Origin: an uncultured Acidobacteriota bacterium
GTDB taxonomy: Bacteria; Acidobacteriota; UBA6911; RPQK01; JAPXNP01
DNA length: 64,000 nt
Direction of reading: 5' to 3'
Assembly (NCBI GenBank): GCA_963777605.1
Contig: CAVZRV010000007.1
Location: 704,001 to 768,000 of the forward strand
Positions 4,126-59,226 of the stretch are shown here, one piece after another (within the stretch, counting starts at the first letter, position 1; every line of letters begins with the position of its first letter). Under the pieces are notes generated by a model, which ran no database searches, was not told the DNA's origin, and saw nothing but the letters and a program-made list of their open reading frames with translations. A program made the position numbers and the translations under genes.

Positions 4126-5103
4126 ATGACGACTGGAAAGAGCACCAGCCTCCTGTCCATCCCTGTTGAACAGATCGATTCTACAGATTCGTTCTACTCG
4201 CATCCAACTTGCGACGCAAGCCCCAGTGAGTGCCTCCGAAGATCGATCAGCGCCTGCGGCATCGGCACTCCCCTGGTTCTGGAACCGGCTGGGACCCGGC
4301 GTTTTCGAATCGTGGACGGATTCCGTCGTTACCAGGTTGCTCTCGAACTCGGCTACCGCGAAATCCCGGGAACACTGGTCTCGGGCAATCCCACGGATCA
4401 TTTTCTGCTGGCGATCGCTCTGAACTCCGCGCACCGCAACTGGAGCGAGCTTGACCTCGCCGAACTGGTGGTCCGGCTGGAGCGCGAGTTCGGGCTTACC
4501 CGGGAGCGGGTCACTTCGAAGGTTGGCCCATTGGTCGATCGGCCGCTCCAGGGAGAAGTCCTGATCAGGCTCGAGCGTCTCGGCTCACTTCCGGACCGGC
4601 TTCGGGAAGCCGCCCGCGGCCGCCTCACGTCGTCCGCCGCCCTTTCACTGGCGAAGCTCCCAGAGGAGGACTGGCTCTTCCTGATCGAAGTGGTCGAGAA
4701 CCTCCAACTCGGCCAGAACAAGCAACGGGAAATTCTGGAGTTGTTCGAGGAACTGGTCCGCCGAGAGGAAGTGCGGGCAGCCGAGATTTGGGAACGGAGC
4801 GGTGCCGGGGCCATCGCGCAATCGTCAGAATTGTCTCCATCCGACCGGTTCCAAGGAGTGAAAAGAGCCCTCTGGCGACTTCGCTTCCCTACCCTGAGCC
4901 GCCATGAAGCCCGCTTTCAGGAACTGACGCGAGGAATGAAGCTTCCTCGCGGTGTAGGGGTCCACACGCCCCCCTTCTTTGAAGGTGACCGGCTCGAGAT
5001 CCGGCTCCGTCCCGCTTCTCAGGCAGAACTCCGAGAGGCTCTGGAAAAGCTTTCCTCCGGCCCGGTGCTGGACCGGTTCGAGGAAATATTTGAGATGCTT
5101 TAG
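4126..5103 (+). CDS. ParB/Sulfiredoxin N-terminal domain protein
   Basis: SISACGIGTPLVL...FRIVDGFRRYQVALELG ParB-N motif followed by a helical region. Start moved from 3955 to ATG 4126, which follows TATAAT at 4111-4116. Confidence 0.8.
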   Translation: MTTGKSTSLLSIPVEQIDSTDSFYSHPTCDASPSECLRRSISACGIGTPLVLEPAGTRRFRIVDGFRRYQVALELGYREIPGTLVSGNPTDHFLLAIALNSAHRNWSELDLAELVVRLEREFGLTRERVTSKVGPLVDRPLQGEVLIRLERLGSLPDRLREAARGRLTSSAALSLAKLPEEDWLFLIEVVENLQLGQNKQREILELFEELVRREEVRAAEIWERSGAGAIAQSSELSPSDRFQGVKRALWRLRFPTLSRHEARFQELTRGMKLPRGVGVHTPPFFEGDRLEIRLRPASQAELREALEKLSSGPVLDRFEEIFEML

Positions 5104-5105
5104 AT

Positions 5106-13109: not shown

Positions 13110-14474
13110 ATGAAAGTAGGACGGAAAATCAAACCCACGATTCTTGTAGCGCTCCTGATTATAGCCTCTACCGCACTCCTCGCTGAAGTGCCAGACATGC
13201 TCAGGCTGCCCGAAATCGACCGGCGGCCGCTCCTGAACGGAATGCAGACTCTCTTCTTCGATAGCGAAGGCGATCGCTGCCACTTTGTCATGATGATCGA
13301 GAACGGGGCTGCGTTCGACCCGGTCGACAAGTGGGGCGCCACCTACGTCATGATGGACCTGGTCGTTGAAGGGTTGGCTGAGCGGAACCTTGCCCCTGAG
13401 TTCACGGCGCGAAACATCGAACTCACCTACGAAGTCGATTGGGACGCACTCTATTTGATCGGCAGCGCGCCTTCCAAAGACATGGAATTCGCCCTGATGA
13501 CGCTTGCTGAACTCGTGGTCGAGCCCAATTTCACCGAGGAGGGTTTTCAGCGGTCACGCGACAAGCTGCTGGCCAAGCTCAAGGAAAAGGATTCGGACAT
13601 CGGCTCGATTACGCAGGCCCTGTTCATTTCCCGGATCTTCGGCGCCAACCCCTACTCCCACTCTGTCAAGGGTACCGTTGAGACGATCGAGAACCTGGAC
13701 CTGCGCGATATTAAGATTCAGGCTCGCCGGCTGCTTCTGCCTAACCAGGCCCGCCTCGCGCTCGCATTTTCGGGCGATCGTGACAACCTCTTCCGGCGCC
13801 TCAGTCGGAGATGGGGAGCCTGGGTCCGCCAGGAGGCGGCTCCCTTTACGTTCCGTCAGAGCAATATGCCGTCGGAAGACCAGATCGTCCTCGTCCCTCA
13901 TGCGGAGGAAGGCCGCAGCTTGATCCGCTGGGGCTATTTAGGAGTCGAGCGGTCCTCTCGGCAGTACTTGACATACAAGGTTCTGGAGCAGTACTTGACA
14001 CTCTCTCTTCCCGACTGGGCCCAGGAAGTCGCGGCCCAGACCCAAATTCGAGGATATGCCCGTGTCGAAGCCCGCAAGATGCCTGGGTTCCTGCAGATCA
14101 GCCTCGACTCGGCGCCGGAACGGGTTCCCACGTATCTGCGCAAGTTCAGGTCGGTTCTCGCCGCACTGAAAGAGGGCCAAATCAACGAGAAGCGGTTCGC
14201 AGAAGCAAAGCTTCTTCTTCTCCAGGAACTTCAGTCCAATATGGACAACCCGCTGGCCAGGATTCGGGAAGTACTGGCAACGGAATTGTACGACTTGGGC
14301 ATTAATTTCATCCCCACCTTTCCACTACGGCTCGAGAGAGTGACGCCGGAGGTGTTTCGAAATACTGTTAAGGAGGGCTTTCCGGAGGGAGGTTCGGTGG
14401 CAGTAATTGCAACTCCGAACGACTCGATGAAGGCTGAATTGGAGGAACTTGGCAAAGTAGAAGTCTTGAATTAA
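13110..14474 (+). CDS. Exported M16-family protein lacking HxxEH (probably inactive)
   Basis: Signal peptide MKVGRKIKPTILVALLIIASTALLA; LLNGMQ, GAAFDPVDKWG, NPYSHSVKGTVETIENL features of the M16 fold. Confidence 0.8.
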   Translation: MKVGRKIKPTILVALLIIASTALLAEVPDMLRLPEIDRRPLLNGMQTLFFDSEGDRCHFVMMIENGAAFDPVDKWGATYVMMDLVVEGLAERNLAPEFTARNIELTYEVDWDALYLIGSAPSKDMEFALMTLAELVVEPNFTEEGFQRSRDKLLAKLKEKDSDIGSITQALFISRIFGANPYSHSVKGTVETIENLDLRDIKIQARRLLLPNQARLALAFSGDRDNLFRRLSRRWGAWVRQEAAPFTFRQSNMPSEDQIVLVPHAEEGRSLIRWGYLGVERSSRQYLTYKVLEQYLTLSLPDWAQEVAAQTQIRGYARVEARKMPGFLQISLDSAPERVPTYLRKFRSVLAALKEGQINEKRFAEAKLLLLQELQSNMDNPLARIREVLATELYDLGINFIPTFPLRLERVTPEVFRNTVKEGFPEGGSVAVIATPNDSMKAELEELGKVEVLN

Positions 14475-14494
14475 CTTCTTGAAGCCGCTAAAAT
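14466..14494 (+). promoter_or_regulatory. Sigma70-type promoter of the rimP operon
   Basis: TTGAAT (14466-14471), 17 nt spacer, TAAAAT (14489-14494). Confidence 0.65.
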
Positions 14495-14516
14495 TACGCC
14501 GGTAGGCGTCTACTCC

Positions 14517-14547
14517 AAAAGTGGGCACATGCCCACTTTTTTATTTT
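14517..14547 (+). promoter_or_regulatory. rimP leader hairpin (terminator/attenuator-like)
   Basis: AAAAGTGGGC-ACAT-GCCCACTTTT followed by a T-rich tract just before rimP; a GTGGG...CCCAC hairpin here is widespread in bacteria. Confidence 0.8.
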
Positions 14548-14556
14548 GGGCGGGTA

Positions 14557-15015
14557 ATGATTGGCGTTGCGCAGCGGGCGCGGGATCTCATCAAATCAGT
14601 CGTTGAAGAAGAAGGTTTTGAGCTGGTTCACGTGGAATACACGGCGACGGGCTCTGCGCCTGTTCTGCGGGTGTACGTAGACAGACCAGGAGGTATCACC
14701 CTCTCGGATTGCGCGGGATTGAGTAGAAGGATCAGTGTCCTCCTCGACGTGGAGGATTTTATCCCGACTCATTACTTATTGGAAGTGTCTTCGCCGGGAA
14801 TCGAGCGTCCACTCTTTACAGAGCGCGACTATTTACGGTTCAACGGACGGGAAATCCGTCTGAGTACCCGAGAGAAGATAGACAAGCGAAGGAACTTTAG
14901 AGGGACTATAGAGGAATTCCATGACGGCATTGTGCGCCTTCGTTGTGCAAATCAGGTCTATGAGATCCCGTTTGCACAGGTGAAACGCGCTAACTTGGTA
15001 TACGACTTTGATTGA
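14557..15015 (+). CDS. rimP: Ribosome maturation factor RimP
   Basis: GFELVHVE, VLRVYVDRPGGITLSDC, YLLEVSSPGIERPL; first gene before nusA. Start set at ATG 14557, after the leader hairpin. Confidence 0.96.
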   Translation: MIGVAQRARDLIKSVVEEEGFELVHVEYTATGSAPVLRVYVDRPGGITLSDCAGLSRRISVLLDVEDFIPTHYLLEVSSPGIERPLFTERDYLRFNGREIRLSTREKIDKRRNFRGTIEEFHDGIVRLRCANQVYEIPFAQVKRANLVYDFD

Positions 15016-19138: not shown

Positions 19139-19435
19139 TTGCTTGTGCCTATTCTCTTTTGTTCTGCTGAGCTTTATCTGCCCTACTGCCACTCGCTCAA
19201 AGAGAAGCGGCGAGTCATCAAGAGTGCGCAGGAGAAGTTGCGGAACCGCTTCAAATGTTCGGCCAGCGAACTGGATCACCAGGAACTCTGGCAGCGAAGC
19301 CGCATCGGTCTGGCAGTGATTGCTTCCGACCGGCGTTTTCTCGATCAACTGGCTGACCGGATTCAGGAAGAGTGCGAACAGATTCTGGGCGGTAGCCTGC
19401 TCAACTTCACCTCGGAAATGCTGGAGCACCAGTGA
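19139..19435 (+). CDS. DUF503 (YlxP) family protein
   Basis: HSLKEKRRVIKS...LRNRFKCSASELDHQELWQRSRIG; position after infB. Confidence 0.9.
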   Translation: MLVPILFCSAELYLPYCHSLKEKRRVIKSAQEKLRNRFKCSASELDHQELWQRSRIGLAVIASDRRFLDQLADRIQEECEQILGGSLLNFTSEMLEHQ

Positions 19436-20392
19436 TGATTCTTCGCGACATAGCCGCCTTCATTCAACGCTACGACAATTTCCTGATTACCGCCCACAGC
19501 CGCCCGGATGGTGATGCGATCGGGACCCAACTTGCCCTGGCGGCCGCCCTCCGGAAGCATGGCAAGAAGGTGGAGATCGTCAACGCAGACCCTTTTCCTC
19601 CCAGTTACCGCAATTTGCCGGGAGCGGGCGACATTCGGATCGCGCCGAGCGTGTCGGCCAGTTCGTTCGAGGCGCTGATCATCCTGGAATGCGCAAACCT
19701 GGAACGAACCGGCCTGCTGGGTCTGGAAGGACTCCCCACGCTCAACATCGACCACCACCCCGTCAACGATTATTATCGGTGAAATCAACTGGGTGGACCC
19801 GACGGCTGCCGCAGTTGCAGAAATGCTCTTCACTATGCTGGTGTCGATGGGATGGGAGGTCACGCCCGATATCGCGACCAATCTTTATGCCGCTATTCTC
19901 ACGGACACTGGATCCTTCCAGTTCTCGAACACGACCGCGGCAACCTTCCAGATCGTCTCTCAGCTGGTTCTGGCCGGGGCTCAGCCATCCGAAATCGCCG
20001 AGGAGGTGCTGCTCCGCCAGTCCGAAGCCCGGCTTCGCCTGATCGCCCGCCTCCTCAGCACTCTCGAAATCGACCACGGTGGGAAAATCGCCTGGATCCG
20101 CCTGGACCGAAAAATGCTCACGGAGACGGGGGCACACCGCCACGACACCGAGGGCCTGGTCAATTATCCGCTCAATATCAACGGGGTTCAGCTATGCGCA
20201 TTCTTCCGGGAGGAAGACGCACAAGAGTTTCGAGTCAGCCTCCGATCCAAAGGCCAACTTGACGTGGGGCAGGTAGCCCAGGAGTTTGGCGGGGGCGGGC
20301 ACCGTAATGCAGCCGGACTTTCGGTTGCCGGGACATTCGAAGAGGCCCGGGATGCGGTCATCGAGTCCCTTCGTCAGCTATTGGAGCCCTGA
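19432..20392 (+). CDS. nrnA: DHH/DHHA1 phosphoesterase (NrnA-like), one +1 frameshift near 19777
   Basis: HSRPDGDAIG and NIDHH in the first ORF; removing one base at TATTATCGGTGAAATC gives ...NDYxGEINWVDP joining the second ORF (TDTGSF, RVSLRS, FGGGGHRNAAG). Confidence 0.85.
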
Positions 20393-26749: not shown

Positions 26750-27205
26750 TCAGCCGGTTTGCTTGGTCCAGCCGGACGACGGCCTCGACAATATGAGTCC
26801 GACAAGAGCCAAAAGCATGAATGGAACAGTCGCCGCCGAAGCTCCCCTGAGCAGAGCCAACAGGAACCCGATAATCGCAATGCTCTCGAACAGGGCGCAC
26901 CGCAACAAGAGCATCACCAGGGCAAACTGCTGAAGATTCTGCTGTTCGTTGAGCCCGTCGGATCTGGGCTCGAGAAACCGACTCAACTGGGTGGCCACTA
27001 TGAAGATGACCACGGCCGCCAGAGCAAAGACAAGCACAAGGGGATCCGACAATGAGACCGACACGCCTTCCCGGTCGGCGGGCACGGCAAGCCGAGCCGC
27101 AACCCAGGCGAGGACGCCCAGAATCACGGGGGTCGGAAGAAAGGCTATCCAGAGAATCTGAAGCAACCTGGCAGAATTTGAGTTCTGAACGTTCACTTCA
27201 CCCAC
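26750..27205 (-). CDS. Hypothetical membrane protein (about 4 TM helices)
   Basis: Four hydrophobic stretches, ALFESIAIIG motif; fills the intergenic gap. Confidence 0.7.
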   Translation of the reverse strand: MGEVNVQNSNSARLLQILWIAFLPTPVILGVLAWVAARLAVPADREGVSVSLSDPLVLVFALAAVVIFIVATQLSRFLEPRSDGLNEQQNLQQFALVMLLLRCALFESIAIIGFLLALLRGASAATVPFMLLALVGLILSRPSSGWTKQTG

Positions 27206-30067: not shown

Positions 30068-31096
30068 ATGAGAGCCGTGATCGTTTCTCTTGCCGTCTTC
30101 TCGTTACTCGTCCCGGCAGTCGTCGCCCAGGGAGCCGAGGCCTGCGGTGTGTGCCACTCAAAGATTCTCTCGGAGTGGCAATCTTCCCCCCACGCCAGGG
30201 CCTGGAGCAGTGAGCGATTCCAGTCGGAACTCCAGAAAACGAAAAACGGCGAATTCTGTGCCAATTGCCACGCGTCACTCTCGATCTGGGCCCAGGTCAA
30301 GATCGAGGGAGCGCCCGAGGGCACCGGCATACTTGAACCAAAAGCGGCCGGGCCGGTAGCCTACATCGCGGCCTTATCGGAGATCCCGTCGGCGCGGACC
30401 GACACCCTGGACGAAGGGGACAACTGCAACTCCTGCCACCTTGTCCAGGTCTTCAGCCCGGCGGGAAAACGTGAAGATTTCATGGGCCCCTACCATACCG
30501 CTGACGGACACACCGGGCGAGAGGCCGAGGAGTTCAAGACCCTTCGGGTCTGCGGAGCGTGCCATGGAAGGGCGGCGGACGACTATCTACCCGATGGAAC
30601 CGGCCTGGGAGCCGACTACTACCACGCCGGTGCGGAAGCAATTACGTTCCTCCGTCAAGGGGTAGACTGCAACGGGTGCCACATGCCCCGCCGTGAGGCC
30701 CGGCTCGTTCAACTCCGCACCTTCCGGAACCTGCCCCCCCGACAAGTCGGAAGTCACACATTTGCCGAAGCCCGTTACGACGGGCTGGCCAAGGCGCTGG
30801 AACTGGCCGCATCTGCGAACCAGCTTTCGGTCACCAACCGCGGCGTGGGACACCCGCTTCGGGTCTGCACCGATTCCCGCTTTCAGATCTCGATATCGGC
30901 CGTGCGAGGGAAAACCGAAATTGGGTCCCACCAGGTTCCCTTCCTCTCCGACCAGCGGTTGCTGCCCGGAGAGACGATCAGCGTCGATCTGCCGTTTGAG
31001 CTGCAGGCAGGGGATACGGTACGAGTCCAGCTCGGGCTCTTGAAGGAGGGGGCGGAACCTCAAACCGTCCTCGATCAGAAAATCAAGGCTGGCTAG
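30068..31096 (+). CDS. Exported pentaheme c-type cytochrome
   Basis: Signal peptide; five CxxCH motifs (CGVCH, CANCH, CNSCH, CGACH, CNGCH); WQSSPHARA; strong SD AAAGGAGG. Confidence 0.9.
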   Translation: MRAVIVSLAVFSLLVPAVVAQGAEACGVCHSKILSEWQSSPHARAWSSERFQSELQKTKNGEFCANCHASLSIWAQVKIEGAPEGTGILEPKAAGPVAYIAALSEIPSARTDTLDEGDNCNSCHLVQVFSPAGKREDFMGPYHTADGHTGREAEEFKTLRVCGACHGRAADDYLPDGTGLGADYYHAGAEAITFLRQGVDCNGCHMPRREARLVQLRTFRNLPPRQVGSHTFAEARYDGLAKALELAASANQLSVTNRGVGHPLRVCTDSRFQISISAVRGKTEIGSHQVPFLSDQRLLPGETISVDLPFELQAGDTVRVQLGLLKEGAEPQTVLDQKIKAG

Positions 31097-33938: not shown

Positions 33939-34709
33939 ATGACAACTGACCGGGCGTTAGTCTGCGTTCTTGCTGACCGTCTGGCCCAGGCGACGAAAAC
34001 CCTTGTGTTCACCGGCGCCGGCATTTCTACCGGATCAGGCATCCCCGATTTCCGGGGCCCCAAGGGACTCTGGCAAACTTGGAAGCCCGTCTACTTTCAG
34101 GAATTCCAGTCCTCCGAAGAAGCGCGCATCCGGCACTGGGAGTTCAAGCTCGCCGGCTGGCACGGCTTTCGTGATGCCCGCCCGAACGCAGCCCATTTGG
34201 CGTTGGTCGATCTCGAACGCAGGGGAATGCTTCACGTCGTAGTGACGCAGAATATCGACGGCCTTCACACCTCGGCAGGTCAGTCGGCGTCGATCCTCAT
34301 CGAACTGCACGGCACCAACCTCGCCGTGGAGTGCCTCTCGTGCGGCCGCCGCTCAGATCCGGATCCACACTTTCAGGAATTTGAACGTAGCCACAAAACA
34401 CCGCTTTGCACGAAGTGTGGAGGCTACCTGAAACCAGCCACGGTTTCCTTTGGACAGCAGATGCCGATGGACAAGCTGCAGAGGGCCTTCCGGGAGGCGG
34501 AAGAGTCCGACCTTGTCATTGCCATCGGCTCCACGCTCGAAGTTGAACCCGCGGCCTCGGTGCCCTTGGCGGGGAGGAGTTCCGGCGCCTTCTACGCGAT
34601 CGTAAACCTCGGCAAAACGGCTCACGACCGGTTCGCGGACCTGCGCATAGAAGGCGACGCGACTGAGGTACTCCCCCAGGTCGTCAACGAGCTTTCCACT
34701 CGGGATTGA
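33939..34709 (+). CDS. cobB: NAD-dependent protein deacylase (sirtuin, CobB-like)
   Basis: TGAGISTGSGIPDFRG, TQNIDGLH, ELHG, CxxC...CxxC zinc ribbon, GSTLEVEPAA. Confidence 0.93.
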   Translation: MTTDRALVCVLADRLAQATKTLVFTGAGISTGSGIPDFRGPKGLWQTWKPVYFQEFQSSEEARIRHWEFKLAGWHGFRDARPNAAHLALVDLERRGMLHVVVTQNIDGLHTSAGQSASILIELHGTNLAVECLSCGRRSDPDPHFQEFERSHKTPLCTKCGGYLKPATVSFGQQMPMDKLQRAFREAEESDLVIAIGSTLEVEPAASVPLAGRSSGAFYAIVNLGKTAHDRFADLRIEGDATEVLPQVVNELSTRD

Positions 34710-34725
34710 CCGGAATTGACCGGCG

Positions 34726-35573
34726 TCAGTGCACAAGCGGGGGTCGAACGCTGGTCACGAACCCGACCACCTTCTGCATGTAGCGCTGACTGTCTACCAT
34801 GTGAATGTCGATGTGTCCGGCTCCCGGGGACGGTCCAGAATTCTTTGGGCCCCGAAACTGATTGTATAGGATCTGGCCCTGCCGGAGAGGCACGGTGCGG
34901 TCCTTGTCGCCGTGCAGGATCAGAACCGGGAATTGATGGTCGTCGAGAAAGCGGGCCGTTTCCAGCCGGTAACGCGCAAAAAGGCTGAATCGGCGGAGTT
35001 GCGGGTACTCTTCCGATCAGCGAAGCCTTGCTGGGAAATGTGGTTTCCAGTATGAGCCCGTTGGGAGGCAGTTGCTTCGACGCAAACGAAGCAATGCAGC
35101 CACCCAGTGACCGCCCCCAATAGACCACCGGAACCCGGAACTTCTTGAAGTTGGTTTCGAAGTACTCGACCGTAGCGACGGCATCCTCATACACTCCCTG
35201 TTCGCTGGGAGCGCCGGTGCTCCAGCCATATCCTCGGTAATCAACCGCCAGGACCTGGAGCCCGTTCCGATAGAACATGGCCAGCAACTCGCTCAGGATT
35301 CCCAGGTTGCCCGTGCTGCCGTGAAAGTAGATGACGCTGCCCACCGGGTGCTCGGGGCAAAGATGCCACGCAGCCAGCCGACACCCGTCCTTCGTATCAA
35401 TAAAGCACTGCTCGTAAGGGAATCCCGCTGTCCGCCGGGGTCTTCAGCACGTCCTTGGACGGACGAAAAACGTATAGCCTTTCCAGCCGGGGGATCGTGA
35501 ACCAGAGAATGACGAACGCAGCGACAACGGCTCCCAGCGGGATCCCCGCCAAGACTCCGATCAGGAACCACAT
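34726..35573 (-). pseudogene. Membrane-anchored alpha/beta hydrolase with four frameshifts (probably assembly errors)
   Basis: Manual reconstruction MWFLIGVLAG...LYVFRP...YFHG...DYRGYG...GRSLG...LILHGDKD...GAGH...PLVH*; shifts near 35416, 35014, 34855 and 34823. Confidence 0.8.
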
Positions 35574-35585
35574 GGGAGCAAGATA

Positions 35586-36261
35586 TTAACACACAGCGGG
35601 ATCCCAGAGAGCTGCCAGCTCCCGGCAGCTCAGGCCCTTGAAATCGCTCACAATCCGGTCGGGTGCGAGGGCCTCGAGTTGGGCCCGGTCGTGGGTGGTA
35701 GTCAGGGCGACACACTTGGATCCCGCAGCCAGCGCGGCCTTCACGCCGGAAAGTGAATCTTCGAAGACCACGGCCGCCGAGGCCGGCATTTCGAGCGCTT
35801 CTGCCGCCTTGAGAAAAGCTTCCGGGTGGGGCTTTCCTTGTCTTGACCTGACGGCTCGTAATCACGGCGGAGAAGTACTTCCCCAGGCCGAGTTCCGCCA
35901 TCACCATCTCGGCATTCTCAGGTGGCCCGCTGGTCGCAACGGCCATCCGGATCGACGACGCCCTCAAATCGCCAAGCAGGGTCAGCAGGCCAGGGACCAG
36001 GTGGCTAGCCAAGGTCGGGCGGATCAACTCCCGGTAGATCGACTCCTTGCGATCCTCGAACCGCACCACCTCTTCGGACGACAGCTCTCGCCCCAGCAAC
36101 GAGGGAAACATGTCCTCGTTCTTGCGCCCAAAAACCCGGTACACGTCCGCGCGAGTCAGGTGCCTGCCCTGTTCCTCGCCAAATCTCCGAAAAGCTTCCA
36201 GGTGGAACTCCACGTTGTCGAGCAGCACTCCGTCCATGTCGAAAATCGCACCCTGCATCAT
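35586..36261 (-). pseudogene. HAD-superfamily phosphatase (beta-PGM/CbbY-like), one frameshift near 35843
   Basis: FDMDGVL motif I and ATS motif II; removing one base restores GKPHPEAFLKAA and joins VVFEDSLSGVKAALAAG (ORF 35586..35789). Confidence 0.85.
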
Positions 36262-37061
36262 CCGATTGACTCCTCGGCCATTCCATTGAGTTCGATCCAT
36301 CCTGCGATTATCCGAGCAAGACTCGCGACCTCTTCCCTGGTCGTGTCGAGCAGGTGCCCGGCTCCGGGAAGTGCCCAAAATGCCTTCGGCTGGCGGGCTG
36401 CGACGAAAAATTGTTCGGCGTCACCAATAGGAATCACACTGTCGGCCGTACCGTGAACGAGAAGAAGAGCCTTGTCCCACGAGGACGAAGTCTCGAGCAG
36501 ATCGTGGGAGTCCAGGTCCTGCATGAACTCCAGGGTCAGAGGGTAGATTCGATCATTGATCACCACACCCGTTTCCCCGTCCCTTTCCAGTACGTTCATG
36601 TCGGCCGGACGAAGCAGCTGACGAATCCGCCACCCGACCCGGTGTGAAGTCCCCAGTGTGACCACGCTTCGGACATTTTGAAGTTGCGCCGCAGCCTGGA
36701 CAGCGGCTGCCCCACCCATCGAATGACCAATCAACGTGATGGGAGGAACACCCTGCTCTTCCATCCAGGAAGCTGCAGCGACAACGTCGAGCACGTCGGT
36801 CGTAAGAGTTGTCTCACGGAAACTGCCCCCACTCTTGCCCAACCCGGCAAAATCAAACCTGAGGACCGCGAAACCAAACTCGGAAAGGCTCCGGGACATC
36901 CAGGAAAGAACCTTGTAGTCCTTGTTGCAGGTGAAACAGTGACAGATCACCACTCCGCCCAGGACCGGAGGACGTCCGGCCTGATAGAGTCCGCTGAGTC
37001 CAATCTCGTCGTGACCGGGAAAAATCACCCGTCGCGGCCGATCCAGCTTTCGTTCGGTCAT
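36258..37061 (-). CDS. Alpha/beta hydrolase (type often fused to OsmC)
   Basis: HCFTCNKD, LRFDFAGLGKSGG, GHSMGG, HGTAD, GAGHLL. Start at ATG 37061. Confidence 0.88.
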   Translation of the reverse strand: MTERKLDRPRRVIFPGHDEIGLSGLYQAGRPPVLGGVVICHCFTCNKDYKVLSWMSRSLSEFGFAVLRFDFAGLGKSGGSFRETTLTTDVLDVVAAASWMEEQGVPPITLIGHSMGGAAAVQAAAQLQNVRSVVTLGTSHRVGWRIRQLLRPADMNVLERDGETGVVINDRIYPLTLEFMQDLDSHDLLETSSSWDKALLLVHGTADSVIPIGDAEQFFVAARQPKAFWALPGAGHLLDTTREEVASLARIIAGWIELNGMAEESIG

Positions 37062-50067: not shown

Positions 50068-51216
50068 ATGAACAATCCGGGCATGATGAAGCGCACGTGG
50101 CTGTACGACTGTCTTTTTGCAATCACCTTCTGTTTGCTCTGGACGCTCACCATTCCAACATCGGTTGCGGCCACCCACTCGATCTTTAACGGGAAGGACC
50201 TCACTGGCTGGACCGAAGTGAACGAGGAAGGGGCGTTTTCGGCGAGCAAAGGAGAACTGGTACTCTCCCAACCTCACCACTACCCAGGCTGGCTGAGAAC
50301 GGACAAGAAATACGAAAACTTTCGGCTGAGCCTCGAGTATCTGACCCCTGGCTGGTGTGAGTCGGGAATCTTCATTCACGCCCCGCTGTACGGCAGGCAA
50401 TCGCGCTCGGGAATCAAGATCCACCTGCGGCACAACAACGAAAACGAAGGCTCCCGATCGGTCGGCGCACTCTACGACATTCTCCCTCCGATGGCGTTGG
50501 TTGCGGACGGGCGCAACCAGTGGAATCGTCTCGAAATTGACTGTGACTGGCCCCATCTCAAGGTAACCCTGAATGGCACCGTCATCCAGGATGTGAACAT
50601 GGAACTGGTTCCCGAATTGCGCTGGCGGATGCGTTCCGGGTACATAGGGATTCAGGATCTGGGTTGCCAAATTCGTTTTCGGAACATTTCGATCGAAGAA
50701 CTTCCCTCCCGGGAGACCTGGAAAGAGCTGTTCAACGGACGGGACCTGACCGGCTGGCACATCAGGGACAACGCTCCGTGGAAGGTTGAGGATGGGAAAA
50801 TCATCTCCGAAGGCGGAGACGGCTACCTGATCACTGACGACACCTTCAGCTCGTTCGTGTTCCAAGTCTTCGTGAAAACCTCAAAACTCGCCAACGGCGG
50901 CATCTTCTTCCGCTGGGGAGTCGATGGCGGTCGCGGTTATGAGACCCAGGTTTTCAACGTTCCCGATGCCACCAATCCGACCGGAAGCATATACGGCGTC
51001 GTTCCCTCGAAAGACCCGTCGTCGCGGGATGGGGAGTGGTTCAGCCTGCAGATTATCTCCGACGGTGCCTACGCTGCGGTCTTTGTCAACGGGGACAAGG
51101 TTGCCGAATCCTCGAGTCTCCCGCTTCGCGACCAGGGTCAAATCGCATTCCAGATGCACCGTGACGGATCAAGGTTGGAGTTTCTCGAGCCGCGGATCAA
51201 GCCGATTCCGCACTGA
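50068..51216 (+). CDS. Exported tandem DUF1080 (3-keto-disaccharide hydrolase-like) protein
   Basis: Signal peptide; two repeats of FNGKDLTGW/FNGRDLTGW...SGIF/GGIF...GALY/GSIY...GYIGIQ/GQIAFQ. Confidence 0.88.
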   Translation: MNNPGMMKRTWLYDCLFAITFCLLWTLTIPTSVAATHSIFNGKDLTGWTEVNEEGAFSASKGELVLSQPHHYPGWLRTDKKYENFRLSLEYLTPGWCESGIFIHAPLYGRQSRSGIKIHLRHNNENEGSRSVGALYDILPPMALVADGRNQWNRLEIDCDWPHLKVTLNGTVIQDVNMELVPELRWRMRSGYIGIQDLGCQIRFRNISIEELPSRETWKELFNGRDLTGWHIRDNAPWKVEDGKIISEGGDGYLITDDTFSSFVFQVFVKTSKLANGGIFFRWGVDGGRGYETQVFNVPDATNPTGSIYGVVPSKDPSSRDGEWFSLQIISDGAYAAVFVNGDKVAESSSLPLRDQGQIAFQMHRDGSRLEFLEPRIKPIPH

Positions 51217-51251: not shown

Positions 51252-52268
51252 ATGGCATTCCTGCGCATCCCGAGACCTTGGGAGAAGATACGTGAGTCGG
51301 AGGTTACCCCGGAATCGCTCTACCTGAATCGGCGCGATATCCTTCGTCGGTTCGGCATCGCCGGCCTTGGAGCGACAGCGGCGGCAGCCAGCCTCGGAAA
51401 GGCACTGGCCCAGGAGACCCGCCTCGGCCCTTACGGTCATGTTTCAAGATTCTGGTCCGAGAAGTGGTCCGACCTGTTCCCGGCGACGAGGGATCAGCGT
51501 TTCAAGGTCGAGCGCGGCATTACCGACGAGCGTATCGTTGCGGGCTACAACAACTTCTACGAGTTCTCGCTCAAGAAACAACAGGTCAAGGAACGGGTTG
51601 ACCAGTTCGAAGTCCATCCCTGGCAGGTGGAAATCGCCGGGGAGGTTGAGAAGCAGGGGACCTTCGATCTGGACGACCTCATCCGGATGGGAAATCCGGA
51701 AGAGCGGGTCTACCACCTCCGCTGCGTCGAGGCCTGGTCTGCCAACGTTCCCTGGACCGGCTTTCCACTCTCTCAGTTGATCGAGAAACTCAAGCCCACG
51801 GCAGACGCGCACTTCGTGCGGTTTTTCACACTGCTTCGTCCTTCGCAAATGCCGACCCAGCGCAACGGCGGCTATGGGTACCCCTGGCCTTACTACGAAG
51901 CACTCCGCATGGACGAGGCCATGAACGAGCTCGCCCTGCTGACATTTGGCGTCTACGGGCATCCGCTGAACAAGCAGAACGGGGCTCCGGTCCGCCTGAT
52001 TCTGCCCTGGAAGTTCGGGTTCAAGAGCATCAAGTCAATCGTCAAGATTGAGTTCGTGAAGAAACAACCAGGGACTTTCTGGACCGACATTTCCAGAGAA
52101 TACGGGTTCTATGGTAACGTCAATCCCGGGTTCGACCATCCAAGATGGAGCCAGGCATCCGAGCTGTTCCTCAACACGAGGGAACGGATACCCACAAGGC
52201 TCTACAACGGTTACGGGGAGTTTGTAGGCGGGCTTTATGATGAAACGGAACGAAAGTACTTCTACTAG
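51252..52268 (+). CDS. msrP: Protein-methionine-sulfoxide reductase catalytic subunit MsrP (molybdoenzyme)
   Basis: SEVTPESLYLNRRDIL Tat signal, YNNFYEF, HLRCVEAWS (Mo-ligand Cys), QNGAPVRLILPWKFGFKSIKSIV, HPRWSQASE, NGYG. Confidence 0.95.
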   Translation: MAFLRIPRPWEKIRESEVTPESLYLNRRDILRRFGIAGLGATAAAASLGKALAQETRLGPYGHVSRFWSEKWSDLFPATRDQRFKVERGITDERIVAGYNNFYEFSLKKQQVKERVDQFEVHPWQVEIAGEVEKQGTFDLDDLIRMGNPEERVYHLRCVEAWSANVPWTGFPLSQLIEKLKPTADAHFVRFFTLLRPSQMPTQRNGGYGYPWPYYEALRMDEAMNELALLTFGVYGHPLNKQNGAPVRLILPWKFGFKSIKSIVKIEFVKKQPGTFWTDISREYGFYGNVNPGFDHPRWSQASELFLNTRERIPTRLYNGYGEFVGGLYDETERKYFY

Positions 52269-52836
52269 GTCAAGGTTCCTTCCCGGGACGAGGTTGCTCG
52301 GCACCGTTCTGTCCTGGACGGGACTGGTCTTCTTCCTGCTGTGGGCTTGCCCCGGCTGTTCCACCGGATACTCCCCGGAAGGCGAACCAATCGACATGAA
52401 AGCCCTGCGGGAGTTCAAACCCTTCGAGTTGCCCGACCTCTCCGGCCAGACCCGCCAGCTTTCCGATTACCTCGACAAAGTGACCCTGGTTTCTTTCTTC
52501 TTTCCCACTTGAGGGACCTGTAATGCGGAGTTGCCGCAATTGCAGAAGCTCTACGATCAGTACTCCAGCCAGGGAATGAAAATGGTCGCCATCAACGTGA
52601 TTCCCGAGCAGGACGACATGGTGGCACCCTGGCAGGAGAAAAACGGGTTCACCTTCCCGATTCTGGTGGGAAGCGACTCAGACTCCATCATGAACGACTA
52701 TCGCATGACGGCAGCACCGCTGAACTTTCTGCTCGATTCCGAGGGTAATATTCTCAACAGGTTTGAAGGCTACGCGCCGGGCGGAGAGAAAGAGATCGAG
52801 AAAGACATCCGTCAGGCGCTGAAACTCGACTCCTGA
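52237..52836 (+). CDS. TlpA/ResA-like redoxin, probable selenoprotein (UxxC), probably exported or a lipoprotein
   Basis: ORFs 52237..52512 and 52531..52836 are in the same frame; reading through TGA 52510-52512 gives FELPDLSGQTRQLSDYLDKVTLVSFFFPT-U-GTCNAELPQLQKLYDQY...AAPLNFLLDSEG (199 aa). Exact start uncertain (ATG 52237/52240 or TTG 52294). Confidence 0.85.
52518..52545 (+). promoter_or_regulatory. Putative bacterial SECIS element
   Basis: Hairpin CTGTAA-TGCGG / loop AGTTG / CCGCA-(A bulge)-TTGCAG; loop begins after a 16-nt spacer from the UGA with G at loop position 2. Confidence 0.7.
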
Positions 52837-53474
52837 TCCGGCTGGTTCAACCGGTCGAGGATACCGAGAATTTCAGGGAAGGCGTCGATCTGGAAATCGG
52901 CCCCAACCGGGTCTTCTCCAACAAACCCGTAGCGACAGAAGATGGATCGGCATCCAGCCGTCCTGGCCATTTCAATATCCGGGGAATGGTCACCCACAAC
53001 GAGAATCTCTTCCGGCGCCAGATTATAGCGGGCCTGCAGGAACTTCACCGGGAAGGGGTCGGGTTTCTTAGCCGAAAAAGTATCACCCCCAGCCACAAAA
53101 TCGAACAGGTTCCCCATATCATGCTCCCGAAGCATGGCCCACACCAGAACCTCGGGCTTGTTCGAGACGATGGTCCGGACCGCCTCCACCTTGGGAAGCG
53201 TCTCCATCACTCCCGGGTAGGGTGTTGCCCGATCGCCCGGGTGCGCTTCGTAATACTCCATGATCACGGGCAAAGCGGTCGCGACATCGACCCCTGCATC
53301 TGCAAACGCTTTCTGAGCGAGGACCTGCACCCCAAAACCGACCATCGCGGTGACCGATTCGATGGAGTGAAGACTCAACCCGAACTCCCGGCGGGCATGG
53401 TTCACAGCGTCCGTAATGTCCTGTCGTGTATCGAACAGGGTGCCGTCAAAATCAAACGTGACTACTTTGATCAA
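52812..53474 (-). CDS. HAD-superfamily phosphatase (phosphoglycolate phosphatase-like)
   Basis: FDFDGTLFDT, VSNK, KKPDP, VGDHSPD, YGF. Confidence 0.9.
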   Translation of the reverse strand: MIKVVTFDFDGTLFDTRQDITDAVNHARREFGLSLHSIESVTAMVGFGVQVLAQKAFADAGVDVATALPVIMEYYEAHPGDRATPYPGVMETLPKVEAVRTIVSNKPEVLVWAMLREHDMGNLFDFVAGGDTFSAKKPDPFPVKFLQARYNLAPEEILVVGDHSPDIEMARTAGCRSIFCRYGFVGEDPVGADFQIDAFPEILGILDRLNQPDQESSFSA

Positions 53475-53658
53475 AATCCTGTCCCTTTCCCGGTCCGGGC
53501 CATTCTCTCACAAGCGAGGTCAGGGCGGGACGCGCTCCGGTCTTGCTGTTTACGGTTCTCCAGGTTGGATATCGGCCGCCCGCAAGGTATAAGTCTTGGG
53601 CGACGAAACACTCGTTGCAAGCGTACCCGGATTTTTTGGAAACAAACGGGGAGGTACT

Positions 53659-56600
53659 GTGCCAAAAGCCTTCGTTCTCAATTTCCTGGTTTTGTCCCTG
53701 GTTGCGTTGACCCCGCTCCCGGCTGCATCCGGGAACGTCGATTTCCCACGCTATCCGTCGATAAGTCCCGACGGCAAGATGGTGGTCTTTTCATGGCATG
53801 GGGACCTCTGGAAGGTTTCCTCATCGGGCGGAGAATCAATCCGGTTGACCAGCAACCCCGGACTCGATGCCCGGAGTGTCTGGAGCCGCGACGGGAAACG
53901 GATCTACTTCGAGTCTGACCGAACCGGTTTCCAGAACATCCACGGCATGAACTCCGATGGAACCGGAGTTCGGGAGATCTCACGTTCCGATGTCGATTTC
54001 TCGCTGGCCGGTGTCGGCGTCGACGAGAACAGAGGCGAGACGATTACCTTCTCTTCTGCCCGAGACGGCGACAACTATCGCTCAGCACGGCCGTTCTCCA
54101 TCTCCTCCGACGGAGGCGAAATCGCCAGGATTCACGATGCATTCGGAGACTTTCCCGTCTGGAGCCCCGACAATCGCCAACTGGCTTTCACCCGGGGAGG
54201 TGCCCGTTGGTCCCGGCGACATTACCGAGGAGCAGACCGGCGCAATATCTGGCTGTACGATCGGGAGAAGGGCTCCTTCCGCCAGCTTACAAACTGGGAC
54301 GGTAATGACGGGTTAGCCCGGTGGGGAAGCCCGACGACTCTGTACTTCCTCTCGGATCGTGAGAACCGACGCTACAACATCTACCGTCTCGATCTGGATG
54401 GAGATCGTGTCAACGTTCGCCCGGTTACCCGCTTCACGGACCGGGATGTCTGGAGTTTCGACGTCTCCTACGACGGCAAGCGCCTCGTCGCCCATGCCTG
54501 GGACACCCTGTATTTCGTCGACCTGTCATCCTCCAACCCGCAACCCAGAGCGCTCGCCATCTCGGCTCCGGATGACGGGAATGATCCATCCTTTCTGCAG
54601 CCGATCGATAAAACCGTCTCAGAGGCCGTGCTCAGCCCGGACGGAGAAACCATGGCGTTTGTGACGTTCGGAGAGGTATACGTTCGTAACGTCGCTGAGA
54701 AGAGCCCGACACAAAGAGTCACCGAAACTCCGGCCCGGGAAAAGGACCTGGCATGGTCTCCGGATGGCCTGCGCCTCTACTTCACCAGCGACCGGGAGGG
54801 AACCTGGTCGATCTACTCCGCGTCGGTCTCACTGAGTCGAAGCGAAGTCAAGGAACAGTTTGAGCCGGCCCAGGTTGAGCAAGCGGCACCGGAGAAGTCG
54901 CAGGAACCTCCCTCTGAAAGCGATCAAACAGCCGGGGACACGAAAAAGGCCAGGACCACCGAAATGAGCCCCGAGAAAGACCCCTCCAGATGGCACGATG
55001 CGGTGCAGTTTGAAATCCTGCCCGTAGTCGTTCGGGGTAGCGACGACTGGAAGCCGCGCCCCTCTCCGGACGGCAAGCTGCTCGCATTTCAGCACGAACG
55101 CGGTGACCTCCGGATTCTCGACCTGCAGACCGGCGCGATTCAGACCCGGGTTTCGGGTTGGGATTTCACCATCGACTGGCGCTGGAGCCCTGACTCCCGC
55201 TACCTTGCCTACCACCAGAATGATCTCAATTTCAATGCGGACATCTGGGTGGTGCCGGCAGACGGGTCAAACCCTCCGGTCAACGTGAGCCGGCATCCCG
55301 ACAATGACCTCGATCCGCGGTGGTCCTCCGACGGGAAGATCCTCAGCTTCGTTTCGGAACGAGTCAACCAGGAATTCGACGTCTGGGCAGTCTATCTGGA
55401 TCGTTCCGTCGAGTCTCTCACCCCGGCAGAACTCGAGCAGTACTACGAGGCCCGCGCCAAAGCCGCCAAAGGGATCAAGCCTCTCCCCACGGAGGAAGCG
55501 GCGGTGGCAGACCCCGGTGACAACAGCCCTGCCCTCAATCTGGAGGATGCCTATCTGCGACTCCGCCGGATCACGCGACTCAATGGCTCGGAATCAAATC
55601 TCGAGATGTCTCCCGGGGGAGATCTCCTTGTATTCACCGCGACCACCGATCGCCCCGGCCTTTACACCATAAAGTGGGACGGTCAGGGCCTCAAGAGGAT
55701 TGGTGACGCCGCGGGTGTTCAGCACATTTCACTCGATGGCCAGAAGGTGGTTCTGCTGAGCAAGGGCCAGGCTTACTTATCCGACATCGACGGCAAGGAG
55801 CGGAAACTGGTGGATATCTCCGACCGCATTCACGTTGACCGCCGAGCCCTGTCCACCGAAAAGTTCGAGGAACTGGCCCACACCCTCGGATCGCTCTTCT
55901 ACCACCCGACCATGAAAGGGCTCGACTGGCCTGCTCTCACCCGTCAGTATCTAAACTTGGCCAGAAACGCTTACACAGCCGACGAGTTCAACGACATCTC
56001 AATGCGGTTGCTGGGAGAACTCAACGGCTCTCACCTGGGAGTCTATGCGAGAGACGGTCGGGAGCCGACTTCCGAGCCGCAGGGCCGCCTGGGAATCAGG
56101 GCTCGCCGGGTGGTCGACGGATATGCAGTTGACGATGTCATTCCGCTCTCTCCGGCCGACGTCGGGCCGATGAAACTACGCCCCGGGGACGTCATCCTGA
56201 CCGTGGAAGGTCAATCCTTTGAAACTCTCGGCACCCTGGACAGTGCGCTCGAGGGCAGAGTTGGAAAGGAAACGCTCTTCCTCATTCGCAGGGGCGGCTC
56301 GTCGTCGGATGCCCCGGTTGAACACACCGTTCTCCTGACTCCGGTCAGCGCGGCACAGGAACGCCAGCTCAAATACGACGACTGGCGCACCTCGAACGCG
56401 CGCAAGGTCTCCGAACTGTCGAATGGGAAGCTGGGTTACATCCACATTCGGGGCATGGACCAGCCTTCCCTCGATGTCTTCGAGCGTGACCTGTACGACG
56501 CAGCCGCCGACCGTGCCGGCCTCATTATCGACGTCCGCAACAACGGCGGCGGATGGACGACTGATCGCCTCCTTGCTTCGATTATGGTCACTCCCCACGC

Positions 56601-57000
56601 CTACACGGTGCCCCGCGGTGCCGACGGGAAGCGGACCGATGTTTACCCCCAGGACCGTCTCTTCATCCAGCGCTACAGCCTGCCGATCGATCTTCTCTGC
56701 AATGAAAAGAGCTTCTCCAACGCGGAGATCATCTCTCATGCATTCAAAACCCTGAAAAGGGGGAGACTGGTGGGACAGGAAACCAATGGATCCGTCATCA
56801 GCACGGGCGCGTTCGAGTTGATCGACGGAACCGTCGTTCGCCTCCCATATCGGGGCTGGTACCTGCCGGACGGCACCGACATGGAGAATCACGGGGCCGT
56901 ACCGGACCTGATCGTGGCCCAAACGCCGGATGCCGAGGCCAAAGGAGTAGACGAGCAGTTGGAGGCCGCCGTCAAGGATCTGCTGGAACGGATCAACTGA
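53659..57000 (+). CDS. Tricorn-like S41 protease (beta-propellers, PDZ, S41)
   Basis: Signal peptide; PD40-like repeats (PSISPDGK, WSPD); GELNGSH, GYIHIRGM, DVRNNGGG, SFSNAE, GAVPD. Start at GTG 53659 after GGAGGT. Confidence 0.93.
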   Translation: MPKAFVLNFLVLSLVALTPLPAASGNVDFPRYPSISPDGKMVVFSWHGDLWKVSSSGGESIRLTSNPGLDARSVWSRDGKRIYFESDRTGFQNIHGMNSDGTGVREISRSDVDFSLAGVGVDENRGETITFSSARDGDNYRSARPFSISSDGGEIARIHDAFGDFPVWSPDNRQLAFTRGGARWSRRHYRGADRRNIWLYDREKGSFRQLTNWDGNDGLARWGSPTTLYFLSDRENRRYNIYRLDLDGDRVNVRPVTRFTDRDVWSFDVSYDGKRLVAHAWDTLYFVDLSSSNPQPRALAISAPDDGNDPSFLQPIDKTVSEAVLSPDGETMAFVTFGEVYVRNVAEKSPTQRVTETPAREKDLAWSPDGLRLYFTSDREGTWSIYSASVSLSRSEVKEQFEPAQVEQAAPEKSQEPPSESDQTAGDTKKARTTEMSPEKDPSRWHDAVQFEILPVVVRGSDDWKPRPSPDGKLLAFQHERGDLRILDLQTGAIQTRVSGWDFTIDWRWSPDSRYLAYHQNDLNFNADIWVVPADGSNPPVNVSRHPDNDLDPRWSSDGKILSFVSERVNQEFDVWAVYLDRSVESLTPAELEQYYEARAKAAKGIKPLPTEEAAVADPGDNSPALNLEDAYLRLRRITRLNGSESNLEMSPGGDLLVFTATTDRPGLYTIKWDGQGLKRIGDAAGVQHISLDGQKVVLLSKGQAYLSDIDGKERKLVDISDRIHVDRRALSTEKFEELAHTLGSLFYHPTMKGLDWPALTRQYLNLARNAYTADEFNDISMRLLGELNGSHLGVYARDGREPTSEPQGRLGIRARRVVDGYAVDDVIPLSPADVGPMKLRPGDVILTVEGQSFETLGTLDSALEGRVGKETLFLIRRGGSSSDAPVEHTVLLTPVSAAQERQLKYDDWRTSNARKVSELSNGKLGYIHIRGMDQPSLDVFERDLYDAAADRAGLIIDVRNNGGGWTTDRLLASIMVTPHAYTVPRGADGKRTDVYPQDRLFIQRYSLPIDLLCNEKSFSNAEIISHAFKTLKRGRLVGQETNGSVISTGAFELIDGTVVRLPYRGWYLPDGTDMENHGAVPDLIVAQTPDAEAKGVDEQLEAAVKDLLERIN

Positions 57001-57095: not shown

Positions 57096-57204
57096 AGTGT
57101 TTGACCGCGAGTTTCAATCTTCGAAACGAGCGGTTTCGCCTTTTTGAGAGAGGCTATTTAGAGCGGGTTTCGAGCTCGATTCGTTTTTATTGGAGGGTTT
57201 TTCT

Positions 57205-59226
57205 ATGCCCAGAAATGGAGCCAGCGCCAAGGTCTGGAAGGCTGTGGATGCAGCCATTTGCTTTTCGGCCGGCAAGGCATTCGACACTATTCAGTTTTTC
57301 AACAAGTACAAACCCAATCCGAGTTTCACACCAAAGTGGTCTGACAAACCGCTGCTGAAGTCGTGGGAGAAATCCAAGCCGAAATTGGGCTGGCCTCGTG
57401 AGACCGACTCGCTCTGTCCGAAGTGCGTTATTGAAGCCCGGGAACGCATTCTCTCGGGAGACGAAGACTATCGCATCCTCATCGACGAAAAGGTCGGCGA
57501 GGTCAAAGCGACGGTCCTGGAGCGGGACGGAGAAGTCTGGATGGTCAAAGAATGTCCTATCCACGGGAAGTACGAGGACATCATGGCCGTAGACAAGAAC
57601 TTCCTCAAGTGGATCGAGTCGAACTTCCCTGGCCGGGATATCCAGGCTCACAATGACGAGGACCTGCACAACCACGGCTCGAGCACGATTCGCCACGGGC
57701 GTGGCGCGGTCCTGACTGTGGACCTCACCAATCGCTGCAACATGATGTGCGATCCGTGCTTTATGGACGCCAACCAGGTCGGCTTCGTCCACCAGCTGGC
57801 GTGGGAGGAGATCAAGGAGATCCTCGACAACGCTCTCAAGATCAAACCGCGGCGGCAGCTTTCGGTGCAGTTCTCTGGTGGGGAGCCCACCCTCTCTCCT
57901 CACTTCTTCCGCGCTATTCGTTACTCGCGTCGGGTCGGCTACAACAGCGTCCAGGCGGCATCCAATGGCATCGAATTCGCCCGCGACTTCAACTTTGCGC
58001 AAAAGGCCGCGGAAGCGGGACTCCGTTTCGTCTACTTCCAGTTTGACGGAATCGGCAACGACGCCAACAGCCATCGGCACATCGGCAACCTTTTCGACGT
58101 CAAACTGCGTGCCATCGAGAACATCCACAAGGCCGGTACGGAACTCGTGCTGGTCACGACCCTGGTCAACAACGTCAACAATGACCAGGTGGGTCCGATC
58201 ATCCGTTTCGCGATGGACAATCCGAAAAAGATCGCGTTCATTTCGTTTCAGCCCGTTTCATTCACGGGTCGCGACGAGGCCATCACTCCGGAACGCCGGC
58301 TTCTTCAGCGCTACACCCTGTCCCACATGGCGCATGACGTCAAGAAGCAGACCGGTCTGACCGAACCGCTCCGAGACTGGTTCCCGCTCTCGATGATGCA
58401 GAGCTTCTCCGATTTCGCCGACCTGTCTCACGGCCCCGACGCCGAGTGGGGCCAGGTCAGCTGCGGATGTCACCCCAACTGTGGTGTAGGCACCGCCCTG
58501 ATGGTGGACAAAGAAACCAAGGACGCCAAGCCGGTTCCGGAGTTTCTCAACATTCCCGGTCTGGTTGGCGATATTCAGAAGATCACCGATGCCGGCCGTG
58601 GGAAGGTCATCAGCAACCTGATGATGGGGCTGGCCCTCCTGAAACACTACAAGCCTTTCAAGGCGCCCAAGCGGCTCACCTTGGGCGATGTCCTGAAGAA
58701 GTTCGACAAGAGCTACGGCCTCTCCGGAATCGATTACGGGAAGAATTTTGGTGACGAGGCGTTCGAACGCCGGAAGGATCCCTGGAACTTCCTCTTCATC
58801 GCCGGGATGTGGTTCCAGGATCTCTTCAACTACGACTTCCGCCGTACCGAGATGTGCGTCATCCCTTACGGGACCCAGGAAGGGGAGATTTCCTTCTGTG
58901 CTTACAACACCGGACACGGCTGGCGAAACATCATCGAACACATGCACATGAATGCGACCGTCGCCGAGTGGTACAAGGAGCATGGCCGGCACTCGATCTA
59001 TGCCGGCGGCAAGAACCTTGACCTGTCCACTTACAATCACAGCCTCGATCTGAACCAGGAGGACGTCACCCACGTCCGGGATCGCCAGACCGAGATCCCC
59101 ATGACCGCACGAGAAGAGAAATTGGCCCGTCGCCGGGCTGCCCGCGAAGCGGCCATGGTGAAGGAGTACTACGAGGAAACGGTTCTGAAAAAGAAGAAGA
59201 AGACCGACCTCGTGCAGCTCGGCTAG
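57205..59226 (+). CDS. tes: Radical SAM protein, tetraether synthase (Tes/GDGT-MAS, MJ0619) family
   Basis: Rubredoxin-like TDSLCPKC...KECPIHG, DLTNRCNMMCDPCF radical SAM motif, QFSGGEPT, YFQFDG, FQPVSFTGR, auxiliary CGCHPNCG, MWFQD, C-terminal ISFCAYN. Start at ATG 57205 after GGAGG. Confidence 0.85.
   Translation: MPRNGASAKVWKAVDAAICFSAGKAFDTIQFFNKYKPNPSFTPKWSDKPLLKSWEKSKPKLGWPRETDSLCPKCVIEARERILSGDEDYRILIDEKVGEVKATVLERDGEVWMVKECPIHGKYEDIMAVDKNFLKWIESNFPGRDIQAHNDEDLHNHGSSTIRHGRGAVLTVDLTNRCNMMCDPCFMDANQVGFVHQLAWEEIKEILDNALKIKPRRQLSVQFSGGEPTLSPHFFRAIRYSRRVGYNSVQAASNGIEFARDFNFAQKAAEAGLRFVYFQFDGIGNDANSHRHIGNLFDVKLRAIENIHKAGTELVLVTTLVNNVNNDQVGPIIRFAMDNPKKIAFISFQPVSFTGRDEAITPERRLLQRYTLSHMAHDVKKQTGLTEPLRDWFPLSMMQSFSDFADLSHGPDAEWGQVSCGCHPNCGVGTALMVDKETKDAKPVPEFLNIPGLVGDIQKITDAGRGKVISNLMMGLALLKHYKPFKAPKRLTLGDVLKKFDKSYGLSGIDYGKNFGDEAFERRKDPWNFLFIAGMWFQDLFNYDFRRTEMCVIPYGTQEGEISFCAYNTGHGWRNIIEHMHMNATVAEWYKEHGRHSIYAGGKNLDLSTYNHSLDLNQEDVTHVRDRQTEIPMTAREEKLARRRAAREAAMVKEYYEETVLKKKKKTDLVQLG

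Follow-up and report, generated by a model that had tools for sequence, protein, structure and literature searches.

The locus described here raises the question of whether a TGA codon in the middle of a redoxin-like reading frame ends translation or is decoded as an amino acid. The window, by which we mean the whole 64,000-nucleotide stretch of Acidobacteriota DNA analysed, carries this codon at positions 52510-52512. Comparison with related sequences indicates that the frame around it is very probably one intact gene for a lipid-anchored, extracytoplasmic TlpA/ResA-type oxidoreductase with selenocysteine as the attacking residue (UxxC). An earlier note on this DNA had read two called ORFs as a single frame broken by TGA alone, and this was borne out by translation of 52237-52836 on the plus strand, in which the sole internal stop is the TGA, in the context FFFPT-stop-GTCNAELP. 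ORF calls with translation table 11 split the frame into 52237-52512 and 52531-52836, and a public protein set stores only the 98-aa C-terminal half (P0022), just as that note had expected of standard annotation. The features of the gene are as follows.

52237..52836, plus strand: read-through coding sequence of a TlpA/ResA-type redoxin, 198-199 aa, with one internal TGA (Pfam; fold)
52240..52359, plus strand: probable lipoprotein signal, consisting of a basic N-region, a hydrophobic helix and Cys41 after Gly (model helix; by eye)
52510..52512, plus strand: in-frame TGA, putative selenocysteine U92 and attacking residue in U-G-T-C (orthologues; homologue column)
52518..52545, plus strand: bSECIS-like hairpin of 11 pairs, with loop AGUUG at 52529-52533 and invariant core at 52522-52538
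52519..52521, plus strand: Cys95, second (presumably resolving) residue of UxxC, invariant among the full-length homologues and the five TGA sequences
52717..52719, plus strand: Pro161, invariant among the full-length homologues and located just ahead of strand 162-167

The read-through product matched the Pfam AhpC-TSA family with 70.6 bits, against 40.8 bits for the C-half alone and no match for the N-half, and the Redoxin family with 66 bits, against 41.9 bits for the C-half alone; its matches to PF00578 and PF08534 both exceeded the gathering score. The predicted structure, in which Cys was built at the TGA position, consists of one confident domain at residues 61-199 (pLDDT 87-98 per 10-residue block) and a separate hydrophobic helix at residues 24-36. 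ResA chains were the best structural matches, with about 26% identity (Foldseek E about 1e-12, TM to target about 0.8), and in each of the three alignments shown with solved structures the TGA falls on the leading Cys of CxxC. The model thus displays the extended thioredoxin fold, (C/U)xxC ahead of the first helix and Pro ahead of a later strand; we take the position of Pro161 to be that of the thioredoxin-fold cis-proline, and the resolving role of Cys95 is likewise assumed from thioredoxin-fold chemistry. The N-terminus is probably a lipoprotein signal. In all five TGA sequences a Cys that follows G, A or S is located 50-51 residues ahead of TGA, the lipobox likeness being a by-eye comparison with the usual lipobox pattern under an uncertain start codon.

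As for its relation to known families, none of the 10 matching NCBIfam families (including ResA, StoA, DsbE, TlpA, WAxxUGC, TUGYCR and SelL-related families) reached its cut-off, the scores being 69 of 170 bits for ResA, 34 of 230 bits for TlpA, 29.6 of 300 bits for the WAxxUGC model and 25.2 of 100 bits for TUGYCR. The redoxin shares with Bacillus ResA and StoA, Bradyrhizobium TlpA, CcmG/DsbE and pneumococcal Etrx2 the fold, what is probably an N-terminal membrane anchor, and the position of CxxC, but it is only about 26% identical to these Cys-type envelope thioredoxins and would carry Sec in place of the first Cys. UxxC redoxins were correctly named in the earlier note as a known selenoprotein class, since Table 1 of PMC13188914 catalogues UxxC selenoproteins as Prx-like thiol:disulfide oxidoreductase (PF00578), redoxin (PF08534) and TlpA-like (cd02966). 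The gene agrees with these catalogued forms in Pfam families, in placement of UxxC and in the hairpin inside the coding sequence just 3' of UGA; it differs in that the window branch carries FFFPT-U-GTC and not the WAxxUGC or TUGYCR motif, a comparison made at the level of the class and not by alignment to the listed representatives. The sequences give good support to its classification as a mis-annotated, putative UxxC selenoprotein of the TlpA type in Acidobacteriota, outside the named NCBIfam subfamilies.

A protein search yielded 18 full-length homologues among 136 candidates, with 46-60% identity. The proposal that TGA stands at the first Cys of the TlpA/ResA CxxC agrees with this set, in which the TGA column is Cys in 18 of 18; this uniformity shows only that the position is catalytic, because TGA forms cannot appear as full-length proteins. 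When the C-half was used for the search, 11 matches were obtained among 12 candidates, namely the window's own fragment, three full-length Cys proteins and seven fragments, and the three closest fragments (79-80%) begin a few codons past the TGA position. We infer a TGA behind such metagenomic fragments (P0023-P0029 and others), truncation at contig ends being an alternative. A search for shorter forms, with the full-length alignment covering 30-71 aa only, gave two uninformative fragments among 26 candidates. A tree of 57 rows was then considered (5 TGA sequences, 18 Cys homologues, 12 fragments, 14 further relatives and 8 outgroups), built with 28 of 150 listed proteins and with P0020-P0022 and P0029 omitted. 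The five TGA sequences and six database fragments without the N-half formed one branch (96/86), within which there was no full-length Cys protein. Two Cys branches and six more fragments adjoin the TGA branch in an order that this 57-row tree does not settle, and it leaves the direction of the Sec/Cys change equally unsettled.

For the identification of orthologues, GTDB genomes were scanned with the C-half alignment, using a single pattern about 25 codons downstream of TGA that is blind to the codon itself and restricts the scan to near relatives. Eleven stretches matched the pattern and four were confirmed (L001-L004), all from Acidobacteriota MAGs and with 56-62% protein identity; these loci also point to Acidobacteriota as the origin of the window. 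In agreement with the selenoprotein reading of the earlier note, all four orthologous loci carry TGA at this codon. Across the 143 codons that align without gaps in the five genomes, mean pN was 0.23-0.24 in both halves, without any indel; both halves are therefore under purifying selection. Mean pS was 0.66 before TGA and 0.61 after the hairpin, as against 0.17 in the hairpin codons +2 to +11, and the 10-codon windows with the lowest pS in the gene fall on the hairpin. The longest invariant run, 17 nt, covers the upper stem and loop, the next longest being 8 and 6 nt. Of the conserved 4- or 6-fold degenerate columns, 4 of 5 within the hairpin were identical in all five sequences, compared with 2 of 34 in the rest of the gene (Fisher p 0.0009); with all synonymous columns included the figures were 6 of 8 and 10 of 56 (p 0.002), p-values that overstate independence since the five sequences are related. 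The loop Leu codon TTG is kept in 5 of 5, even though TTG accounts for 8-11% of Leu codons in these sequences. These counts indicate that the hairpin is under constraint at the nucleotide level, its conservation across orthologues being far above chance, and it is this conservation, not the hairpin alone, that we regard as the decisive evidence for recoding.

The hairpin itself was recovered by folding in every element given in the earlier note: a stem of 11 pairs including one U-G pair, one bulged base, and the loop AGUUG starting 16 nt after UGA. The MFE for 52513-52550 was -14.2 kcal/mol (z -2.37, with 4 of 200 shuffles equally good); the shuffle z stayed at about -2.3 with windows of 38-51 nt and was -0.31 with 66 nt. 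The Rfam scan of the 64-kb window gave no match for the hairpin or for anything else. The published bSECIS model, as its constraints are given in PMC13188914, asks for a loop of 3-9 nt with G within its first two positions, a spacer of 16-37 and an MFE of -7.5 or lower. The hairpin resembles it in the 5-nt loop with G second and then U, the 16-nt spacer, the 11-bp stem and an MFE of -14.9, and differs in that the spacer is at the lower limit of the model and no separate lower stem is conserved. We applied our own approximation of this model, not bSECISearch itself, to the TGA sequences and to controls drawn from the window and the four loci, with TGA triplets taken from all six frames. The bacterial SECIS prediction made earlier stands in so far as the published constraints are fitted by 5 of 5 TGA sequences, but about 40% of the controls fit too (30 of 74 TGA stops that are probably real, 194 of 498 Cys codons and, among TGA triplets, 1603 of 3918), so that by itself the hairpin exceeds chance only to a modest degree. 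When the criteria were tightened, with the target already in view, 2 of 74 stops, 14 of 498 Cys codons and 106 of 3918 TGA triplets still passed. Across the five sequences 9 of the 11 pairs never vary and 94.5% of cells pair; with little variation among them, two-sided change was found in 0 of 11 pairs and one-sided change once, 3 of 55 cells were unpaired, and pair counts were no higher than in shuffles. L001 retains just the 6-pair upper stem. As there is no covariation, the structure is deduced from folding together with sequence invariance. In a hairpin screen of the window for other recoded TGAs, the loose model gave 205 candidates, and no second convincing case was found among the best 45 of these 205, judged by eye.

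In the mechanism that we propose, SelB would bind the G-U loop 16 nt past UGA and deliver Sec-tRNA, while translation without Sec delivery would stop and leave a useless 90-aa piece. The redoxin would be exported, lipidated at Cys41, and would cycle between the selenol-thiol and the selenenyl-sulfide forms. Re-reduction might be performed by a membrane carrier of the DsbD/CcdA type, none of which was seen in the window, by the general DsbD-to-thioredoxin route described in PMC8238504, which is assumed to apply. Cytochrome c maturation and dsbD/ccdA genes were absent nearby among the scanned ORFs of the window and loci, and no fusion to MsrP or DsbD/CcdA was found in the best five Pfam families of each of 35 homologues, most of which are longer than the query. 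Acidobacteria are among the organisms with selenoproteins (PMC1794560, Table 2; PMC13582414). Neither sel genes nor tRNA-Sec were found in the 64-kb window or in the four loci of 16-20 kb, where a tRNA scan returned nothing at all. Elsewhere in the window, 30068-31096(+) encodes an exported protein in which haem-binding motifs of cytochrome c are present (weak MtrC/c7 Pfam matches); proteins of this class might be clients of a ResA-type reductase.

The internal TGA could be accounted for in other ways. A genome-wide alternative code, with TGA as Trp or Gly, was rejected: TGA terminates many full-length genes of the window and also ends the redoxin gene itself at 52834-52836, and, TGA being a usual stop here, reassignment of the code fails to account for the internal one. 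The UGA might instead be read as Cys by an opal suppressor of the SelC*/tRNA-ReC type using the same hairpin, the product being an ordinary CxxC TlpA. All our conservation results fit Cys insertion equally well, SelC*-type tRNAs exist and in E. coli one of them was able to suppress an opal codon (PMC5389517), and since UGA recoding with a SECIS downstream is attributed to tRNAs of either anticodon type (PMC13582414), the hairpin cannot tell Sec from Cys. However, the account in PMC5389517 places selC* in anaerobic Firmicutes, Thermodesulfobacteria, Nitrospirae and Proteobacteria, and gives allo-tRNAs for Acidobacteria instead. Cys decoding by SelC* is also much rarer than Sec decoding, and we judge it very unlikely here. 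SelC*-type decoding generally accompanies Sec decoding.

Were the TGA a true stop, the locus would be either a clade-wide pseudogene or a split gene with the halves made separately, in line with the annotation of the C-half alone by gene callers and with an in-frame TTG at 52531 that could act as a start. Such a start, however, would drop both active-site residues, the TGA falls exactly on the catalytic residue inside one domain, pN is far below pS in both halves over the 143 codons of five genomes without indel, and a dead gene would not keep the 17-nt invariant block; the chance that we leave to this explanation is slimmer still. An error of sequencing or assembly, or a recent nonsense mutation confined to the source genome, is effectively excluded because the same TGA recurs in all four of the separate MAG records, at protein identities of 56-62%, even if the window does contain at least one frameshifted gene (DHH). 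Selenocysteine thus remains the preferred reading of the codon.

Some further genes of the window deserve mention. The DHH/DHHA1 phosphoesterase gene at 19432-20392(+) is split in two frames near 19770, an apparent frameshift; the statement of the earlier note that the other broken genes are indels holds for this gene, whose halves lie in different frames, and it is the sole gene checked. The gene rbfA usually lies between infB and truB, and no match to RbfA was found among the scanned ORFs between these two genes. At 34622-36378(-), a 361-aa ORF with a HAD match at residues 42-183 only, possibly another frameshift, overlaps an alpha/beta hydrolase ORF that begins where its Pfam match begins. 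A ParB-N-like gene is followed by a spore photoproduct lyase-like gene at 3955-6242(+). The 678-aa radical SAM protein encoded at 57190-59226(+) was matched best by Tes (310.6 bits, cut-off 450) and by the (seleno)protein TrsS (208.6 bits, cut-off 490), and passes neither cut-off.

The redoxin gene is flanked by the following two genes, the second of which is given as context.

51252..52268, plus strand: msrP, periplasmic molybdoenzyme methionine-sulfoxide reductase (NCBIfam NF003767, 393.7 bits, cut-off 207)
52812..53474, minus strand: HAD phosphatase gene, convergent, overlapping the redoxin 3' end (ORF calls, NCBIfam, Pfam)

The redoxin start is likely to be ATG at 52240 (or 52237), inside the 3' end of msrP, giving an overlap of 29-32 nt. 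The gene msrP is located directly upstream of the redoxin gene in L001-L003 (67-69% identity) and is absent from the 20 kb of L004. An ATG situated 29 nt before the msrP stop and followed by an open frame is kept in the window and in L001-L003, that is, in 4 of 4 linked loci, and in L001 and L003 no ATG, GTG or TTG follows the msrP stop before the hydrophobic stretch begins. This conserved ATG falls in Asp-Glu codons of msrP. On the other side, aroC directly precedes msrP in L001-L003; in the window, a two-domain PF06439 gene (3-keto-disaccharide hydrolase, 50068-51216(+)), absent from that place in L001-L003, lies between aroC and msrP. In the window and in L001-L003 the redoxin gene is followed by a gene that is convergent or unrelated. 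In the window, the HAD gene is followed by a divergent gene at 53596-57000(+) for a 1134-aa tricorn-like S41 protease with beta-propeller and PDZ domains. Between 48500 and 53800 no promoter was predicted, and the 8 terminator-like sites found, as against 6.4 +/- 2.4 expected, are at chance level; one such stem, at 52306-52324(+), lies in the signal-peptide codons just past the msrP stop.

The window msrP resembles that of the MsrPQ systems (E. coli YedYZ, Rhodobacter) in that it passes the equivalog cut-off and keeps the RCVE Cys, which we take to be the Mo ligand; it differs in that the gene after it encodes the presumed seleno-redoxin and not the haem membrane protein MsrQ. Since the convergent HAD gene overlaps the redoxin 3' end, there is no room for msrQ downstream. 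No match to PF01794 (MsrQ) was detected among the selected ORFs (8 + 46 window queries and 52 locus ORFs), and a six-frame screen gave four multi-helix ORFs, none of them near msrP. By eye and by position, a small four-helix membrane protein with no Pfam match was noticed near hflKC/dinB in three genomes; with few or no His residues, it appears not to be MsrQ-like.

26753-27205, minus strand, in the window; 13614-14045, plus strand, in L001; about 14400-14830, plus strand, in L002: four-helix membrane protein

The arrangement described above would be consistent with co-translation of the redoxin with msrP as an envelope oxidation-repair unit, in which MsrP would act on methionine sulfoxide and the selenoprotein on oxidised cysteines or disulfides. 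A further step would be that the selenoprotein, if Sec is indeed inserted, serves as the direct two-electron donor to the molybdenum centre of MsrP, replacing the quinol-linked cytochrome MsrQ. The redoxin gene occupies the usual place of msrQ right after msrP, these two genes being normally in one operon with MsrQ as the haem-containing electron donor (10.1101/243626; PMC8076862). In support of such donation are also the overlapping ATG and open frame kept in the linked loci, the lack of an alternative start before the hydrophobic stretch in L001 and L003, and the lack of a Pfam MsrQ match in the scanned ORFs. The Cys-type homologue P0011, a single sequence, hints at the same adjacency in another branch: its residues 1-31 are 65% identical to the MsrP N-terminus (window 51252-51344(+)), either by an msrP deletion that fused its start to the redoxin or by an assembly chimera. 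Against it, aroC and other unrelated genes are equally syntenic, and thus the adjacency of redoxin and msrP could reflect an inherited order of genes; in L004 the selenoprotein gene occurs with no msrP within 10 kb; and the conserved ATG, lying in Asp-Glu codons, may be incidental. In addition, MsrP is described as dependent on the haem-containing MsrQ, unlike the thioredoxin-driven MsrA/B (10.1101/243626; PMC8076862). In view of the equal synteny of aroC, of L004 and of the position of the ATG, we consider co-expression as an envelope unit to be an evenly balanced proposition, and direct donation to MsrP to be unlikely.

A literature search, covering mostly listings and main texts, found no report of this redoxin subfamily, although supplementary prediction tables could hold these genes; for the motif, only unrelated words were found among the matches listed. 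Titles and abstract openings, with few subscription journals, likewise gave no pairing of msrP with a selenoprotein. The recognition of this gene corrects a recurring annotation error, as it and its closest relatives are stored in public sets as C-terminal fragments. It would define a small Acidobacteriota selenoprotein subfamily beyond the NCBIfam cut-offs, with an unusually clean candidate for a SECIS inside the coding sequence, and with Cys-type branches as its sisters it lends itself to the study of Sec/Cys exchange. Should the association with msrP have a functional basis, electrons would reach MsrP by a route that is new, and direct donation, if true, would mean a selenol/thiol-driven molybdoenzyme repair in the envelope that bridges the thioredoxin-type and MsrPQ-type routes of methionine-sulfoxide reduction.
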